From NCBI GenBank assembly GCA_001567185.1, contig LNFR01000066.1, positions 2,138-66,137 on the forward strand: a DNA stretch of 64,000 nt, in the 5' to 3' direction. The notes below the pieces were generated by a model that was given only the letters and a program-made list of their open reading frames with translations, was not told where the DNA came from and did no database searches. Each line of letters starts with the position of its first letter. The stretch's first letter is position 1. The stretch comes from Bacteroidetes bacterium OLB12 (lineage in GTDB: Bacteria; Bacteroidota; Bacteroidia; Cytophagales; Cyclobacteriaceae). This document shows, one piece after another, positions 23,655 to 30,299 of the stretch. The position numbers and the translations under genes are program-made.

Positions 23655-23662
23655 TACTTTTG
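23655..23662 (+). promoter_or_regulatory. -7 element TACTTTTG for the czc leader ORF/operon
   Basis: Exact consensus 4 nt before GTG 23667. Confidence 0.6.
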
Positions 23663-23666
23663 AAGC

Positions 23667-24053
23667 GTGAAAAGACCAATGGCATATCTCCTTACCGCAT
23701 TAATCCTTACGGGATCGGTTATTGATCTGCACGATCTTTCGAAGGTGCCATATATGTTGCGCCATTTTCAGCAACATAAAAGTAACACCCAATCATTTTC
23801 GTTTAGCGATTTCTTCGACCTGCACTATGGGGCATCGGCCGAGCAACATGACAAACAAGAGCATGAACAACACAAGGGGTTGCCTTTCAAAACGCACGAT
23901 TGCACCACCTCGCACATCAGCATGATTCTTACTGATTTTGCCCCCCACATCGAGTCGTCATTCAGTTGCATTATCCGGTATTCTAACTTTTACAAATCCA
24001 CGTACACATCCGCTTTCAGCCAATCCATCTGGCAACCACCTAAGGTGGCATAA
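23667..24053 (+). CDS. His-rich hypothetical protein ending IWQPPKVA; candidate regulatory leader of the czc operon
   Basis: N-terminal hydrophobic segment; HFQQH, LHY, QHDKQEHEQH and KTHDC; C-terminal WQPP; 94 nt upstream of czcA. Confidence 0.75.
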   Translation: MKRPMAYLLTALILTGSVIDLHDLSKVPYMLRHFQQHKSNTQSFSFSDFFDLHYGASAEQHDKQEHEQHKGLPFKTHDCTTSHISMILTDFAPHIESSFSCIIRYSNFYKSTYTSAFSQSIWQPPKVA

Positions 24054-24147
24054 AAAATTCTCACCCAAGTTACTGCCACAACAAAGTTGAAGGGTGGTGG
24101 GGTGAGTGCGGTATTGTTTCATTCATTTTTTCTTAAGTATTATTTCT

Positions 24148-27100
24148 ATGCTTCATGGCATTATCTCCTTTTCAATAAGGAATAAGGTCATCGTAGGTAT
24201 GCTTACCATAGCGCTCGTTTTGTGGGGCAGCTATTCGTTAAAGCAGTTACCGATCGATGCCGTTCCTGATATTACCAACAACCAGGTACAGATTATTACT
24301 GTATCGCCCACCCTGGCCGCACCCGAGGTGGAGCGCCTTGTAACTTTTCCGGTTGAGCAAACTATGGCTACCATTCCTGAAATTGTTGAGATGCGTTCCA
24401 TCTCGCGTTTTGGACTTTCGGTAGTAACCGTGGTGTTTGAAGAAGACACCGATATTTATTGGGCGCGGCAACAAGTAAACGAGCGCCTTAACCAGGCGCA
24501 GGATCAAATACCTGTGGGGATGGGCTCTCCCGAAATTGGTCCGCTTTCAACCGGCCTGAGTGAAATCTATCAATATGTGTTACGAGCCAAACCGGGCTTC
24601 GAAGCAAAATACGATGCCATGGAATTGCGCACCATACAGGATTGGATTGTGCGCAGGCAATTGATAGGCACACCGGGCATAGCCGACATCAGCAGTTTTG
24701 GTGGCTATGTAAAGCAATACGAAATAGCCATTGACCCGGTAAAGTTGCGCGGCATGAACATCAGCATCAGCCAGGTGTTTGAAGCACTGGAAAAAAACAA
24801 TCAAAATACCGGTGGGGCATATATTGAACGCAAGCCCAATACTTACTTTATCCGCAGCGAAGGTCTTGTAAATAACCTGGAAGACATTCGCGCGATCGTG
24901 GTAAAAAATACTTCCAACGGTTTGCCCGTACTAATGCAAGATGTAGGAACTATTCAATTCGGCAGTGCGGCCCGCTATGGCGCATTAACCTATAACAATA
25001 TTGGGGAAGCAGTTGGTGGCGTGGTGTTGATGTTGAAAGGAGCAAATTCATCGCAGGTAATAGGCAATGTAAAGGATCGTATCGAACAAATAAGAAAAAC
25101 ATTGCCTGAAGGGGTGGAGATTGAAGCCTTCCTCGATCGTACCCGGTTGGTTAACAATGCTATTGAAACTGTTGTAAAAAACCTGGCCGAAGGCGCGTTG
25201 ATTGTGGTGTTTGTGTTGGTCATGTTACTCGGAAATTTCAGAGCCGGGTTGGTTGTAGCTTCGGTTATTCCTTTGGCAATGTTATTTGCCGTTGCTATGA
25301 TGAATCTTTTTGGCGTATCAGGAAACCTGATGAGCCTGGGCGCACTCGACTTCGGGTTGATTGTAGATGGAGCTGTAATTATTGTGGAAGCTACCATGCA
25401 TCATTTGGGTATCAACACAATGGCGCGGAAACTTTCGCAGCGCGAAATGGATGAAGAAGTTCAGCAATCTGCCAGTTCTATGATGCGCTCGGCTGCATTC
25501 GGGCAGATTATTATTCTGATTGTTTACCTGCCAATTCTGTCGCTTACGGGCATTGAAGGGAAGATGTTCAAACCCATGGCTCAAACTGTTTCGTTTGCCA
25601 TTTTAGGTGCGCTTATCCTTTCCGTTACCTATGTGCCCATGATTTCTGCGCTGGTGCTTAGCAAAACAACGGGGCACAAAGCAAATTTTTCCGACAGGAT
25701 AATATCATTCTTTAAGCGGGTGTACCAACCCGTGATTGAGTCGGCCCTGAAGCATAAAGTTATTACGGTAGCTGTTTCAGTGATTATGCTGATCGGTAGC
25801 TTCCTTATTTTTCTGCGCCTGGGTGGAGAGTTTATTCCCACGCTGGATGAAGGCGACTTTGCAGTAGAGACCCGCTTGATAACAGGAAGTTCGCTCAGCG
25901 AGTCAATTGAAGTGAATCTTAAGACAGCCGATGTATTGATTAAAAATTTTCCGGAAGTAGAAACTGTAATCGGCAAAATAGGAACCTCCGAAATTCCTAC
26001 CGATCCGATGTCAATCGAAGTAACGGATTTGATTATCACATTAAAAGAAAAAGACGAATGGGTTACAGCCTCCACGCGCGAAGAACTGGCGGATAAGATG
26101 CTGGCAAAACTGGAAGCAGCATTGCCGGGTGTGATGTATGGATTTCAGCAACCCATTCAACTACGTACCAACGAATTGATGACCGGAGCCAAACAGGATG
26201 TTGTGTTAAAAATTTTTGGCGAAGATCTGGACTTGCTGGCGAGGTATGGCGAACAAGTGGGAAAGCTGGCCCGTGAAGTGGAGGGAGCGGAAGATGTGTT
26301 TGTTGAACCCATAGGGGGATTACCTCAAATAGTGGTGAAGTGGAATCGCCAGCGGCTGGCACAGTTTGGGCTAAGTATTGATGAAGTAAACCGCGTGTTG
26401 CGCGCTGGCTTTGCAGGCGAGGTTGCCGGATTGGTTTTTGAAAATGAAAAACGATTCGAGCTGGTGGTTCGGTTGGCCAATCAAAACCGCCAAAACATAA
26501 ACGATGTTAAAAATTTATTTGTTACCACGGCATCGGGATTACAAGTACCGCTAGATCAACTGGCAGAAATCAATCTCACCATTGGTGCCAATCAGATACA
26601 ACGCGATGATGCCAAACGAAGAATTGTAGTAGGGTTTAATGTGCGTGGCCGAGATGTGGAAAGCATTGTAAACGAATTAGACGAAGAGATTTCTGCGAAA
26701 CTGAAATTTGAACCCGGCTATTATATTACCTACGGGGGTTCATTTAAAAATCTGGAAGAAGCGGAGCAACGGTTATCCATTGCTGTACCAATTGCACTCA
26801 TTCTGATTTTCCTGATGTTGTATTTTACGTTCCACTCGCTGCGCCACAGTTTGTTAATTTTTACAGCCATTCCACTTTCAGCCATTGGTGGAGTAGTTGC
26901 GTTGTGGTTGCGCGATATGCCTTTTAGTATTTCGGCCGGAGTGGGCTTTATTGCTTTGTTTGGTGTAGCGGTTCTAAATGGCATTGTACTGATTGCGGAG
27001 TTTAATAAACTCCAAAAGCTTGGTAAAGAATCGTTGCATCAGCTGGTGATGAAAGGAACACAAACCCGCCTTCGGCCGGTGCTTATGACCGCGCTGGTAG

Positions 27101-27273
27101 CTTCGCTCGGTTTTTTACCCATGGCGCTTTCGCAAGGCTCAGGGGCAGAAGTGCAACGCCCGCTTGCTACGGTGGTTATCGGAGGTTTAATAACAGCAAC
27201 CTTACTTACGCTGGTGGTGCTGCCTGTTTTGTACACTTTGTTTGAAAAGAGAACGCAATCAACGGAATTATGA
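24148..27273 (+). CDS. czcA: CusA/CzcA heavy-metal RND efflux pump
   Basis: LPIDAVPDITNNQVQ, GALDFGLIVDGAVIIVE, RLRPVLMTA, EVQRPLATVVIGG. Start taken at ATG 24148. Confidence 0.95.
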   Translation: MLHGIISFSIRNKVIVGMLTIALVLWGSYSLKQLPIDAVPDITNNQVQIITVSPTLAAPEVERLVTFPVEQTMATIPEIVEMRSISRFGLSVVTVVFEEDTDIYWARQQVNERLNQAQDQIPVGMGSPEIGPLSTGLSEIYQYVLRAKPGFEAKYDAMELRTIQDWIVRRQLIGTPGIADISSFGGYVKQYEIAIDPVKLRGMNISISQVFEALEKNNQNTGGAYIERKPNTYFIRSEGLVNNLEDIRAIVVKNTSNGLPVLMQDVGTIQFGSAARYGALTYNNIGEAVGGVVLMLKGANSSQVIGNVKDRIEQIRKTLPEGVEIEAFLDRTRLVNNAIETVVKNLAEGALIVVFVLVMLLGNFRAGLVVASVIPLAMLFAVAMMNLFGVSGNLMSLGALDFGLIVDGAVIIVEATMHHLGINTMARKLSQREMDEEVQQSASSMMRSAAFGQIIILIVYLPILSLTGIEGKMFKPMAQTVSFAILGALILSVTYVPMISALVLSKTTGHKANFSDRIISFFKRVYQPVIESALKHKVITVAVSVIMLIGSFLIFLRLGGEFIPTLDEGDFAVETRLITGSSLSESIEVNLKTADVLIKNFPEVETVIGKIGTSEIPTDPMSIEVTDLIITLKEKDEWVTASTREELADKMLAKLEAALPGVMYGFQQPIQLRTNELMTGAKQDVVLKIFGEDLDLLARYGEQVGKLAREVEGAEDVFVEPIGGLPQIVVKWNRQRLAQFGLSIDEVNRVLRAGFAGEVAGLVFENEKRFELVVRLANQNRQNINDVKNLFVTTASGLQVPLDQLAEINLTIGANQIQRDDAKRRIVVGFNVRGRDVESIVNELDEEISAKLKFEPGYYITYGGSFKNLEEAEQRLSIAVPIALILIFLMLYFTFHSLRHSLLIFTAIPLSAIGGVVALWLRDMPFSISAGVGFIALFGVAVLNGIVLIAEFNKLQKLGKESLHQLVMKGTQTRLRPVLMTALVASLGFLPMALSQGSGAEVQRPLATVVIGGLITATLLTLVVLPVLYTLFEKRTQSTEL

Positions 27274-28490
27274 TTTACAGAGTTAAAATTTTTGTTTTGT
27301 CGCTTGCGCTGATCAGCACTGCGACTTACGCTCAAAAAATGAGTTGCAAGGAAGCGATACAAGCTGCACTAAAAAATAACGATCGCCTAAAGGCGGAAGA
27401 ATACCATATCGAGCAAGCCCGCCAGCTTAAGAAAGCACAAACGGACCTTGGTAAGTTTTCGGCTACCTTAATGAAGGGCGAGTACAACACCATTCAACAA
27501 GACAACAACGTTACATTTTCGCAAAGCATTCCTTTTCCTTCTACGCTGATGGCTCAAAACAAATTAGGCAAGGAACAGGTACTGGGTGCCGAGCGAAGCC
27601 TGGCCCTTGAGCAAAACAACCTGGTGTATGAAGTAAGGTTGGCTTACGAACTCTTGTTGTATCACCAGGCGCTTCAGCAACTCTTGCTTTCGCAGGATAC
27701 CTTGTTTGCGAATTTCGCGCGGGTGGCTTCGGTTCGCTACAAAACCGGTGAAGGAACCTTGCTGGAAAAAACAACAGCCGAGAGCCAACACCTTGAAATC
27801 AAAAATCAATTACAGCAGAATGAAGCCGACAGGAACATCGTTCAAAAACGATTGCAGGTATTGGTTAACACAGGCGAAGTAATTCAGCCGAACGAAGATT
27901 TTGTTAAGCGCACACTAACCCAGGGCACCCTTACCAATAACCCAACATGGCAGTATGAATTGCAACAGACCAACATCAGCCGGCAGGCGCTTCGCGTTGA
28001 GCGCAACAGGTTTTTACCCGATCTTGAATTGGGGTATTTCAACCAAACGTTAATCGGATTTCAAAATACTACGGGCACCGAAGAGTTTTACGATAAGAGT
28101 AAGCGCTTTCAAGGCTTTATCGTGGGTGTTTCCTTCCCGCTTTGGTTTGCCCCACAAACTGCGCGGGCAAAGGCAGCTTTTTACCAGCATGAGGCAGCAC
28201 AAAAAACGGCTGGCTATACACAGGCATTAATTACGCAGGAGTATGAGCAAGCCATGCTTGAATTAAGAAAGAACGAAACCAGCCTGGCGTATTACGAACA
28301 GTCTGCGCTTCAAAATGCAGCGCTCATACTATCGCAAGCAACTAAGTCATTTCAGACGGGTGAAATTGGCTATGCCGAGTATTTACAATCGTTGCGCACG
28401 GCTATCGGTATTAAAGCCAATTACCTGATGGCGTTGCAGCAGTATAATTTATCTATCATCAAAATCGAATCACTCACCGGAACCATCTGA
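27270..28490 (+). CDS. TolC/CzcC-family outer-membrane efflux channel
   Basis: Signal peptide ending AQ, two OEP-like helical halves, FLPDLELGY. ATGA overlap with czcA. Confidence 0.88.
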   Translation: MIYRVKIFVLSLALISTATYAQKMSCKEAIQAALKNNDRLKAEEYHIEQARQLKKAQTDLGKFSATLMKGEYNTIQQDNNVTFSQSIPFPSTLMAQNKLGKEQVLGAERSLALEQNNLVYEVRLAYELLLYHQALQQLLLSQDTLFANFARVASVRYKTGEGTLLEKTTAESQHLEIKNQLQQNEADRNIVQKRLQVLVNTGEVIQPNEDFVKRTLTQGTLTNNPTWQYELQQTNISRQALRVERNRFLPDLELGYFNQTLIGFQNTTGTEEFYDKSKRFQGFIVGVSFPLWFAPQTARAKAAFYQHEAAQKTAGYTQALITQEYEQAMLELRKNETSLAYYEQSALQNAALILSQATKSFQTGEIGYAEYLQSLRTAIGIKANYLMALQQYNLSIIKIESLTGTI

Positions 28491-28495
28491 TCATT

Positions 28496-29656
28496 ATGAA
28501 CTCCATTATTATATCAACCAAAAATCTTTACCGGGTAGTTCTGCTGGCAACCCTTACGGTGGTGTCATGTTCAAAACCCGAACATACCAGCCAGGAAGAA
28601 TCAGCAGCCGAGGCAGAAACCATTCGCCTGACAGCGGAGCAGGTTAAAACGATTGGTTTGCAGTTGGGCAATGTAGAATCCCGAACAATCGCATCGCCCG
28701 TGCGGGTAAACGGTATGCTGGAAGTGCCACCCCAAAACATGGTTACGATAGCTGCGCCCATGGGAGGTTTTGTAAAGCATACCGAACTGCTGCAGGGCAT
28801 GCGCGTGAAGCAGGGCCAGGTAGTGGTTACGCTCGAGCATCAGGATTATATCCGCTTACAACAGGATTACCTGGAAAGCAAAACCCAATTGGAGTTTCTG
28901 GAGCAGGAATATAAACGCCAGGAAGAACTTGCCCGCGAAAATGTAAACGCTGCAAAAGTATTGCAACAGGCTCTATCAAATTACAACTCGGCAAAAGCCA
29001 AAGAAGAAGGATTGCGCGCACAAATTAAAATGATTGGGCTTTCCGCAGAGACTATTCAGAAAGAGGGAATAAAAAGTATAATTAATATTACTACCCCCAT
29101 TGCCGGTTATGTAACGGAAGTAAATGTAAACCGGGGCAAGTTTGTAAATAGTGCAGATGTCATGTTTAAGATTGTTGACACCGACCACCTGCATGCCGAA
29201 GCCCAGGTATTTGAGGGAGATATTATGAAACTTCGTACCGGGCAAACCATGAAGTTGAAGTTGGCCAATGAAACAGAAGAACGAATTGCTACCATTTATC
29301 TGATCGGTAAAGAAATTTCAGCAGAGCGAACCGTGCGGGTGCACGGCCACCTGGAAAAAGAAGACCCCTTGTTGATTCCCGGAATGTACTTCGCAGCAAC
29401 TATCGAAACAGGCAGCAGCCCTGTGCCTGCTTTGCCCGAGGCTGCAGTAGTGAGCTACGATGGGGTGAGTTATATTTTCATTCAAAAGGCAGCGAACGAA
29501 TTTGGTTGGGTAGAAGTGAAAACCGGTATTAGTGAATCGGGGTTTACACATGTTATTTTACCCGATGACTTTGATAGGAATGCCGCTGTGGTAACCCGCG
29601 GGGCCTATTCATTACTCAGCATACTTAAAAACGCAGAGGGCCACGATGATCACTAA
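28496..29656 (+). CDS. RND periplasmic adaptor (CzcB-like), lipoprotein
   Basis: Lipobox VVSC, barrel-sandwich/coiled-coil MFP pattern, ITTPIAGYV, C-terminal GHDDH. Confidence 0.92.
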   Translation: MNSIIISTKNLYRVVLLATLTVVSCSKPEHTSQEESAAEAETIRLTAEQVKTIGLQLGNVESRTIASPVRVNGMLEVPPQNMVTIAAPMGGFVKHTELLQGMRVKQGQVVVTLEHQDYIRLQQDYLESKTQLEFLEQEYKRQEELARENVNAAKVLQQALSNYNSAKAKEEGLRAQIKMIGLSAETIQKEGIKSIINITTPIAGYVTEVNVNRGKFVNSADVMFKIVDTDHLHAEAQVFEGDIMKLRTGQTMKLKLANETEERIATIYLIGKEISAERTVRVHGHLEKEDPLLIPGMYFAATIETGSSPVPALPEAAVVSYDGVSYIFIQKAANEFGWVEVKTGISESGFTHVILPDDFDRNAAVVTRGAYSLLSILKNAEGHDDH

Positions 29657-30299
29657 CCTCAGCCATAACGAGATATTAATTTATATCCTTGGATTTTTTG
29701 CCCAATCGCTTTTTGGCGCGCGCACAGTGGTGCAATGGGTGCAGTCTGAGCGTGCCGGGCGGGTTGTATCACCAACATGGTTTTGGATTTTCAGTTTAAG
29801 TGGCTCCATATTATTTCTTGTTTATGGATTGCTGCGAAAGGATGTAGTAATTCTGGTTGGGCAAACACTCTCGTTCTATATTTATGTACGCAACCTTCAG
29901 TTAAAACAGGTATGGAGTAAACTCCACGTTATATTCAGAATACTGATTGTGCCTATTCCATTTGTATTGATGGGCTGGACGTGGTGGGTAACCCCGCAGA
30001 GTTTTCAACACATTTTTAGAGGAACAAACGTTGCGGATGTGGCGTTGCTTGTGGGCGGTGTTGGACAATTATTATTGAATTTGCGATACCTGTACCAATG
30101 GTATTTTTCCGAGAAGGCCCGGCAATCGCTTTTACCCTTGGGGTTCTGGATAATAAGTGCGGTGGCTTCGTTAATGGTAGTTTATTACGGCATCAGGCGC
30201 AATGATCCGGTTTTGCTTACAGCGCAAAGTTTAGGTTTTGCGGTTTACCTGCGCAACATCTGGTTTGCCTTGCGCACCCGTGCAGTTGTAAAGCAATAA
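29646..30299 (+). CDS. Membrane protein with two lipid-A-disaccharide-synthase N-terminal (LAB_N)-type repeats
   Basis: Repeated GQ.LF..R..(V/Y)QW..SE......P..FW..S..GS/AS.....YG..R.D.V motif. Confidence 0.85.
   Translation: MITNLSHNEILIYILGFFAQSLFGARTVVQWVQSERAGRVVSPTWFWIFSLSGSILFLVYGLLRKDVVILVGQTLSFYIYVRNLQLKQVWSKLHVIFRILIVPIPFVLMGWTWWVTPQSFQHIFRGTNVADVALLVGGVGQLLLNLRYLYQWYFSEKARQSLLPLGFWIISAVASLMVVYYGIRRNDPVLLTAQSLGFAVYLRNIWFALRTRAVVKQ

Follow-up and report, generated by a model that had tools for sequence, protein, structure and literature searches.

A candidate metal-sensing leader peptide with a conserved Pro-Pro ending upstream of a czc-type efflux pump in Bacteroidota

At the head of a heavy-metal efflux operon in Bacteroidetes bacterium OLB12 (Cyclobacteriaceae) lies a small open reading frame (ORF) of 128 codons, whose product has a signal-like N-terminus, a His-rich module and, close to its stop codon, the motif I-W-Q-P-P-K. 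We analysed it within a stretch of 64,000 nucleotides (nt), hereafter the window, to which all coordinates refer (GenBank assembly GCA_001567185.1, contig LNFR01000066.1, positions 2,138 to 66,137 of the forward strand). A first-pass annotation of this DNA had read the ORF as a possible metal-sensing ribosome-arrest leader of the pump genes, an interpretation that comparative analysis partly supports. On the strength of sequence and analogy, we lean with moderate confidence towards the view that the small ORF would encode a co-translationally exported metal sensor, in which a Pro-Pro (PP) pause controls the pump gene czcA in cis. Comparison across loci brings out the features that support this view: a probably leaderless first cistron, conservation of the peptide, a ruler-like spacing between a ligand motif and PP, the placement of PP beside the stop codon, and a position at the operon head before several kinds of metal transporter. 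A predicted disordered C-terminal half and a structured intergenic region support it further.

The small ORF and its family

The segments of the small ORF and the gene that follows it are listed below; pLDDT is the AlphaFold2 (AF2) confidence score and dN/dS the ratio of nonsynonymous to synonymous change.

23667..24053, + strand: small ORF, candidate metal-sensing leader peptide; GTG start, TAA stop (24051-53), 128 amino acids (aa)
23667..23723, + strand: signal-like N-terminus, residues 1-19; basic n-region MKR, ~12 hydrophobic residues, G16-S17, AF2 helix 2-18
23724..23903, + strand: His-rich module, presumed metal-binding sensor, residues 20-79; delimited by conservation, pLDDT 81-92 and dN/dS ~0.05
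23904..23978, + strand: linker or ruler, residues 80-104; sequence variable, length kept
23979..24026, + strand: aromatic/Ser-rich stretch (Y-x-N-F-Y-x-S...F), residues 105-120; semi-conserved, dN/dS ~0.11
24027..24044, + strand: terminal motif I-W-Q-P-P-K, candidate pause or arrest site, residues 121-126; nearly invariant
24148..27273, + strand: czcA, CusA/CzcA-family heavy-metal resistance-nodulation-division (RND) pump, presumed regulated gene; TIGR00914 at 1174.5 bits against a cut-off of 701.45, PF00873

The ORF first described upstream of an RND pump gene is confirmed as a genuine gene. Its 39 close homologues (45-97% identity) are, where named, all Cyclobacteriaceae 'hypothetical proteins', and an exhaustive phmmer search over 50%-identity clusters returned 1,103 clusters at E<=1e-3 and 55 at <=1e-10, the best 150 being full-length matches to proteins of ~110-135 aa. 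These numbers, together with a low dN/dS at saturated synonymous change, place the ORF far beyond chance. A family profile matched 76 of 401 sampled Bacteroidota genomes, in 47 of 178 genera, a count that takes in partial matches to a sister family, DUF6660, discussed below. No Pfam or NCBIfam model matched the small ORF at E<=1, and nothing above chance level emerged when 78 relatives were scanned singly against the same collections, except three weak matches to NF045614 (CzcI). In the PDB, neither the sequence profile nor the fold of the AF2 model found a match.

The composition of the peptide agrees closely with what had been read from it. The W-Q-P-P assigned to 24030-24041 corresponds exactly to the codons TGG (24030-32), CAA (24033-35), CCA (24036-38) and CCT (24039-41), after which only AAG, GTG and GCA precede the TAA. 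The 'about a dozen' His and Cys residues are 10 His (residues 22, 33, 37, 53, 61, 66, 69, 77, 83 and 94) and 2 Cys (79 and 101). The proposed N-terminal membrane or signal segment, MKRPMAYLLTALILTGS, combines a basic n-region with a run of ~12 hydrophobic residues; it conforms to a family consensus MKK-[hydrophobic x11]-S-x-T-E and is consistent with a Sec signal peptide in residues 1-19. Behind it, the His-rich module is laid out as H33-x3-H37, F49, H53-Y54, an acidic/His run at 59-69 and L72-P73-F74-K75-x-H77-x-C79.

To see which of these features are maintained, residue conservation was measured in 194 family sequences thinned to <60% identity. Within the module, H33, H53 and Y54 are conserved in 100%, H37 in 99%, F49 in 96%, L72-P73-F74 in 96-100%, K75 in 88%, C79 in 69% and H77 in 65% of sequences. 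At the C-terminus, P124 and P125 are conserved in 100%, Q123 in 95%, W122 in 93%, I121 in 90% and K/R126 in 87%, so that the QPP end, in the form (I/V)(W/F)QPP, is nearly invariant. In a wider set of 269 family proteins, 263 (98%) have PP 2-4 codons ahead of the stop and 243 (90%) have K or R directly after it. The residue at window position 128, the last one, is Cys in ~25% of diverse members (...PPKSC, ...PPRNC, ...PPRQC) and Ala in 23%.

The middle of the protein had been expected to diverge between conserved ends. This holds for the linker (residues 80-104), where relative entropy is mostly <0.7 bits per column while the length is kept; it does not hold for the His-rich N-terminal half, which is strongly conserved and predicted to be folded. 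Despite the unconserved linker sequence, LPF and PP are spaced 50-57 residues apart, with a standard deviation of 1.7 (258 proteins); in the window protein C79 lies 45 and H77 lies 47 residues before P124. A crude Nei-Gojobori estimate from eight close relatives, with dS saturated at >=0.8, gave a dN/dS of about 0.05 for residues 20-79, 0.42 for the linker, 0.11 for residues 105-120 and 0.02 for IWQPPK (121-126). This pattern indicates that selection acts on the peptide, not on the RNA. An AF2 model built with a 73-sequence alignment places confident helices only in residues 1-70 (block pLDDT 81-92; helices include 2-18, 21-24, 27-40, 46-54 and 58-69), and renders the C-terminal 58 residues (71-128) as coil with pLDDT 48-66, the terminal motif being unpacked against the helical part.

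The position of the gene is conserved as well. Among the 30 best diverse family loci, 27 carry a czcA orthologue downstream on the same strand, with a gap of 43-368 nt (median ~95); the exceptions have a thioredoxin-like protein and ApbE (L022) or small membrane proteins downstream. In the window, alignment with 26 orthologues places the czcA start at the ATG at 24148, and the intergenic region is therefore 94 nt long.

The partial matches of the profile in the genome search are to Pfam DUF6660 (PF20365). Proteins of this family, ~105 aa long, begin with a hydrophobic segment, carry a CSPFCxCxCCG cluster and a variable linker, and end in IWQPP[KRQ]-x-x. An hhalign comparison of the window family with DUF6660 gave 98.2% probability (E 4e-14) over window residues 58-128, and the distance from P-F to P-P is 51 in both. 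The C-terminal halves are thus homologous, with the same ending, spacing, promoter-box layout and site upstream of czcA; in contrast, the N-terminal halves are unrelated, with PCxD and a Cys cluster in DUF6660 and a His-helical module in the window protein, and where DUF6660 has CSPFCxCxCCG the window protein has LPFKxHxC. Neither the window protein nor the relatives scanned match the Pfam DUF6660 model. Judged by these alignments, DUF6660 is a sister family, of which the window protein is no member. DUF6660 itself weakly matches the CopL model, and we found no mention of it in the literature.

A DUF6660 gene precedes czcA in 15 of 20 loci; in the other five it precedes TonB-dependent receptors (three loci: L033, L035, L049), a P-type ATPase (L047) or DUF3347/HMBD proteins (L041). 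One terminal motif is thus combined with two ligand modules and placed before operons that serve different membranes, and the partner of the motif should therefore be a common factor such as the ribosome rather than the pump. A pump-binding role would be hard to square with the shared motif, which is easy to explain if the ribosome is the partner. The spectrum of genes next to IWQPP ORFs mirrors that published for DUF2946/CutF-like proteins.

Transcript start, intergenic region and neighbouring genes

Two elements flank the small ORF:

23655..23662, + strand: TACTTTTG, a -7 promoter box of the Bacteroidota type (TAnnTTTG); 4 nt separate it from the GTG
24060..24106, + strand: intergenic stem-loop CUCACCC...GGGGUGAG, ~-20 kcal/mol, followed by a U-rich AU tract

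The proposal that the ORF is 'probably leaderless' is borne out by comparison. In ~20 of 30 diverse family loci, against ~0.09 expected by chance, the same -7 box precedes the start codon by 3-7 nt, and a similar box stands just before the start codon in DUF6660 loci; a variant, TAnnTTTA, also occurs before family starts (loci L001-L030 and L031-L050). The position of the transcription start site relative to the box is taken to be that of the published Bacteroides/Flavobacterium promoter consensus. Because the box is directly before the start codon and recurs across loci, the czc mRNA is probably leaderless or nearly so. Non-AUG start codons (GTG, TTG or CTG) are used at about two thirds of loci; placed at the very 5′ terminus of a leaderless mRNA, they would make an unusual combination. 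Such a layout would suit a regulatory ORF of low abundance.

The stem-loop begins 6 nt past the stop codon, 21 nt past the P125 codon; 41 nt lie between its end and the czcA ATG. Close relatives have hairpins at the same place, partly of different sequence; covariation among them amounts to one compensatory pair, in an alignment disrupted by indels. Across the family, intergenic regions are more stable than dinucleotide shuffles, with a mean z of -2.45 and 14 of 27 below -2. A ribosome paused at PP would spare the window hairpin, and one at the stop codon would enter the outer stem by 3-4 nt, a geometry compatible with an attenuation-type logic.

Downstream of czcA the operon continues with the other two components of the pump:

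27270..28490, + strand: outer-membrane efflux protein (CzcC/TolC-like); PF02321, E 9e-31, its start overlapping the czcA stop
28496..29656, + strand: periplasmic adaptor (CzcB-like membrane-fusion protein); TIGR01730 at 128 bits, PF16576

A gene for a LAB_N protein (PF07578; lipid-A-biosynthesis N-terminal domain, two repeats, SemiSWEET-like) at 29646-30299 overlaps the end of the adaptor gene by 11 nt and may be co-transcribed with the operon. Members of the family also occur on plasmids of Chryseobacterium balustinum (NZ_CP033935.1, L059) and Spirosoma oryzicola (NZ_CP089544.1, L060), under the RefSeq name 'hypothetical protein', and there too they directly precede a CusA/CzcA gene. These plasmid copies adjoin transposase/recombinase and toxin-antitoxin genes, and their CzcA genes, of ~1,450 codons, are apparently fused with an outer-membrane factor. 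Neither in the window nor at the plasmid copies in Chryseobacterium and Spirosoma does a dedicated regulator gene adjoin the small ORF.

Proposed mechanism and alternatives

In the mechanism that we favour, a leaderless czc transcript would open with the small ORF as its first cistron, whose product would act in cis while it is being made. With the -7 box directly before a start codon that is often GTG or TTG, as the comparison of loci indicates, ribosomes would load at the 5′-end, and the signal-like N-terminus would direct the nascent chain to the Sec translocon. Elongation would then pause at P124-P125. During the pause, the ~30-35 C-terminal residues, comprising the aromatic/Ser stretch and IWQPP, would fill the exit tunnel; the length-conserved linker would span tunnel and translocon; and LPFK-x-H-x-C, 45-52 residues before PP, would have reached the periplasmic opening of SecY, the His module having already emerged. 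Zn, Co or Cd bound by His and Cys (H33/H37/H53/H77/C79) may alter the pulling force on the chain or its conformation and so either lengthen the pause (the CutF response) or relieve it (the CruR response). The length of the pause would determine if the hairpin closes in the wake of RNA polymerase or remains open, and thereby the level of czcA-czcC-czcB; attenuation of transcription, access of Rho or the fate of the mRNA could each provide the route of output.

A more specific version is possible, and we put it forward tentatively, as something we would sooner doubt than assume: [IV][WF]QPP[KR] could be an Arg-independent, Bacteroidota-specific class of pause or arrest motif, common to His-type and Cys-type (DUF6660) sensors, which would couple periplasmic Zn/Co/Cd sensing on leaderless transcripts without Shine-Dalgarno (SD) sequences to RND pumps, TonB-dependent receptors and P-type ATPases. 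Its output would differ from that of CutF (SD unmasking) or CruR (Rho); one example would be hairpin-controlled attenuation set by the closeness of the lead ribosome to RNA polymerase.

Several observations weigh against control in cis by a pause. The window hairpin leaves the czcA start uncovered, and a search of the window intergenic region for a canonical intrinsic terminator found none. Of 34 intergenic regions only 11 contain terminator-like hairpins, where shuffles give 3-6; the enrichment across loci is weak. The minimum free energy fold suggested a SecM/CutF-style pairing of the stall-site codons with the czcA start region, which we rejected: the duplex energy is -7.0 kcal/mol, compared with -5.3 for shuffles and -6.3 for non-cognate pairs, and synonymous-recoding controls show no excess pairing (Wilcoxon p=0.37; window pair mass zero). 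SD sequences are rarely used in Bacteroidota, and the SD-shielding output of CutF is not simply transferable. We know of no documented arrest by W-Q-P-P, and the Arg that stands two residues before PP in RAPP/RGPP peptides is absent, W122-Q123 standing there in 93-95% of members. Even in CutF, the Pro motif alone gave no stall in E. coli reporter tests (PMC9973294).

The very strong conservation and predicted fold of the N-terminal module also count against a pause-based reading, for they would equally fit a functional mature protein. The ORF may encode a stable metal-binding protein, either exported or tethered to the membrane, which acts in trans as a periplasmic metallochaperone supplying the pump or as a CzcI-like periplasmic regulator, with IWQPPK as a docking or turnover motif. 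A His-rich module invariant at five positions and predicted to be helical (pLDDT 81-92) is what such a protein would have; three members weakly match NF045614 (E about 5e-3), hhalign to CzcI reaches 35.6%, on plasmids gene and pump are carried together, and a hairpin behind a first cistron can simply serve to adjust the stoichiometry of a protein that is small and abundant. However, the C-terminal 58 residues are predicted to be disordered, and a docking tail would need neither a linker of kept length nor PP within 2-4 codons of the stop. The same tail also stands before TonB-dependent receptors and a P-type ATPase, which have no partner in common with CzcA, and leaderless mRNAs with non-AUG starts speak against high abundance. 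CutF and CruR, which have the same build, are undetectable or rapidly degraded when mature (PMC9973294, PMC9426467). We consider a role in trans, the main rival, improbable on balance, although the conservation of the N-terminal module is too good to set it any lower; sensing in cis and a function in trans are not mutually exclusive.

Much less probable, in our view, is that PP acts only as a kinetic pause, giving time for targeting by signal recognition particle and Sec or for metal loading, with downstream expression unaffected. At termination a 128-aa chain is still mostly in or near the ribosome, where a late pause would aid co-translational targeting, and PP followed by K or R is a generic slow site (PMC9973294, discussion). 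Yet such a pause leaves unexplained why I-W-Q is invariant before PP, why the spacing to the ligand motif is fixed, why the intergenic region is structured and why the ORF stands so strictly at the head of transporter operons.

A radical S-adenosylmethionine (SAM) gene (PF04055, 22560-23612) lies immediately upstream of the small ORF on the same strand, in the window as in Cyclobacteriaceae relatives, and the ORF might in principle encode a precursor peptide, akin to ribosomally synthesized and post-translationally modified peptides, for this enzyme. We rejected this candidate as very improbable: the neighbour is restricted to the window's clade, with only 2 of 30 diverse family loci and 0 of 20 DUF6660 loci having it, and the small ORF has its own promoter box and czcA as its conserved partner. 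A chance open frame, suggested by nothing more than small size and a GTG start, is refuted by the 1,103 related clusters, by conservation across the full length down to 25-30% identity and by a dN/dS far below 1 with saturated dS.

Control in cis by a metal-sensing nascent chain, if correct, would have several implications. Heavy-metal RND pumps of Proteobacteria are usually under two-component systems, and to our knowledge the control of czc-type pumps in Bacteroidota is essentially unknown; here a self-contained sensor and switch of ~130 codons would travel with the pump, plasmids included, and need no transcription factor. Metal sensing by nascent chains, known from CutF and CruR, would be extended from copper to Zn/Co/Cd and to His ligands, and would reach a phylum with unusual translation initiation. 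One more pause motif would join the few natural arrest sequences. A family model and a name would in any case annotate thousands of 'hypothetical proteins' (~1,100 clusters with no Pfam or NCBIfam model).

Comparison with known systems

The analogy drawn in the first-pass annotation to CruR/DUF2946-type leaders that combine a localization segment, metal ligands and a terminal di-proline is accurate according to the published work on CruR and CutF (PMC9426467, PMC9973294, bioRxiv 10.1101/2025.02.05.636593). Its statement that no such system had been characterized stands for experiments; as a description of the literature it does not, for Ozturk et al. 2023 had already listed 5,334 'CutF-like' proteins, 19% of them from Bacteroidota and with ACR_tran (CzcA) among their downstream neighbours, and had counted CopL and CzcI among them (PMC9973294). 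Set against the rules for this group (length <150 aa, PP near the C-terminus, a same-strand neighbour within 1 kb), the window protein has 128 aa, P124-P125 three residues before the stop and czcA 94 nt away. The published definition also recruits members by iterative jackhmmer from CutF seeds and asks for a SignalP-predicted Sec signal peptide; the MKR n-region, the hydrophobic run and the small residues G16-S17 would be consistent with such a signal.

In CutF of Rhodobacter capsulatus a Sec signal is followed by a CxxxC motif and, after a further 45 residues, by P109EPEGPPPRL118-stop; Cu binding to its exported part lengthens a PPP-dependent stall that is sensitive to elongation factor P (EF-P) (PMC9973294, bioRxiv 10.1101/2025.02.05.636593). 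The window protein resembles it as a first cistron of <150 aa with an N-terminal Sec signal (signal-like here), a ligand motif ~45 residues before a C-terminal Pro-Pro(-Pro), a basic residue after the prolines and then 1-2 residues to the stop (...GPPPRL in CutF, ...WQPPKVA here), followed by a structured intergenic region and a metal-detoxification gene, as in the cutFOG operon. In contrast to CutF, the ligands are His (HxxxH, HY, LPFKxHxC) rather than CxxxC, the motif is IWQPP rather than GPPP, and the target is a Zn/Co/Cd-type RND pump rather than a multicopper oxidase. The mRNA, moreover, is probably leaderless, the phylum is poor in SD sequences and the hairpin lies off the downstream start, and for these reasons the output step of CutF cannot be the same here.

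CruR of Bordetella pertussis (DUF2946) has the arrangement CXXC-45-RAPP. Its spacing varies by no more than 1-2 residues and is needed for function; relief of the arrest by Cu permits Rho-dependent termination (PMC9426467). The arrest has been demonstrated in vitro and needs the Arg (PMC12992588). CruR acts via Rho, independently of its signal peptide and of EF-P, and its product is poorly structured and lowly expressed, with a long intergenic region (162 nt). Like CruR, the small ORF is an upstream ORF heading a metal-transport operon, with a fixed ligand-to-xxPP spacing, and TonB-dependent receptors are also found downstream of its DUF6660 relatives. The spacing of ~45 residues typical of DUF2946 is present from C79 to P124, whereas a CXXC/CxxxC copper motif is absent: Cys 79 and 101 are not so arranged and the conserved ligands are His. 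DUF2946 (PF11162) gave no match at E<=1 for the window protein or 51 diverse members, and none anywhere in the window's genome. CruR combines CXXC with R-A-P-P and an essential Arg that is missing here.

The same residue separates the small ORF from the RAPP/RGPP class, to which the first-pass annotation had likened it: an Arg two residues before Pro-Pro is essential there (PMC12992588), whereas this family has W-Q in those positions, and its motif is not of that type. What the ORF shares with RAPP/RGPP peptides (ApdA, ApdP) and with SecM, VemP and MifM is the design, that is, an N-terminal targeting segment, a variable linker, a motif few codons before the stop and a next gene that is, or in the present case would be, regulated in cis (PMC7897499, PMC10951233, PMC10987492, PMC12992588). 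In contrast to these, the downstream gene encodes no Sec/YidC component, and the input would be metal, not translocon activity.

CzcI of Cupriavidus metallidurans pMOL30 (NF045614), too, is a small protein with a signal and His/Cys residues, encoded directly before a czc RND pump; it has been proposed as a metal-sensing regulator, but it has no C-terminal PP (it ends ...APDRPQWQRLA) and precedes czcC, not czcA. Its model does not match the window protein and matches three members at E 0.0045-0.0088; the hhalign comparison with CzcI covers the N-terminal two thirds and aligns HFxEH, HY and (L/K)PF..DC, at a probability (35.6%) below any family threshold. In that alignment CzcI (L058:25177-25524) 'EKKPFVDTDCGVCH' is paired with family 'KGLPFKTHDCTTSH'. 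The pairing raises the possibility of CzcI being a degenerate relative from which the pause motif was lost.

Taken together, the likenesses lead us to file the window protein, by analogy, as a protein that would work like CutF and CruR and as neither a DUF2946 member nor one of the RAPP class, because it agrees with the CutF-like rules on length, PP and neighbour and keeps the 45-residue ruler while the DUF2946 match, CXXC and the Arg are lacking.

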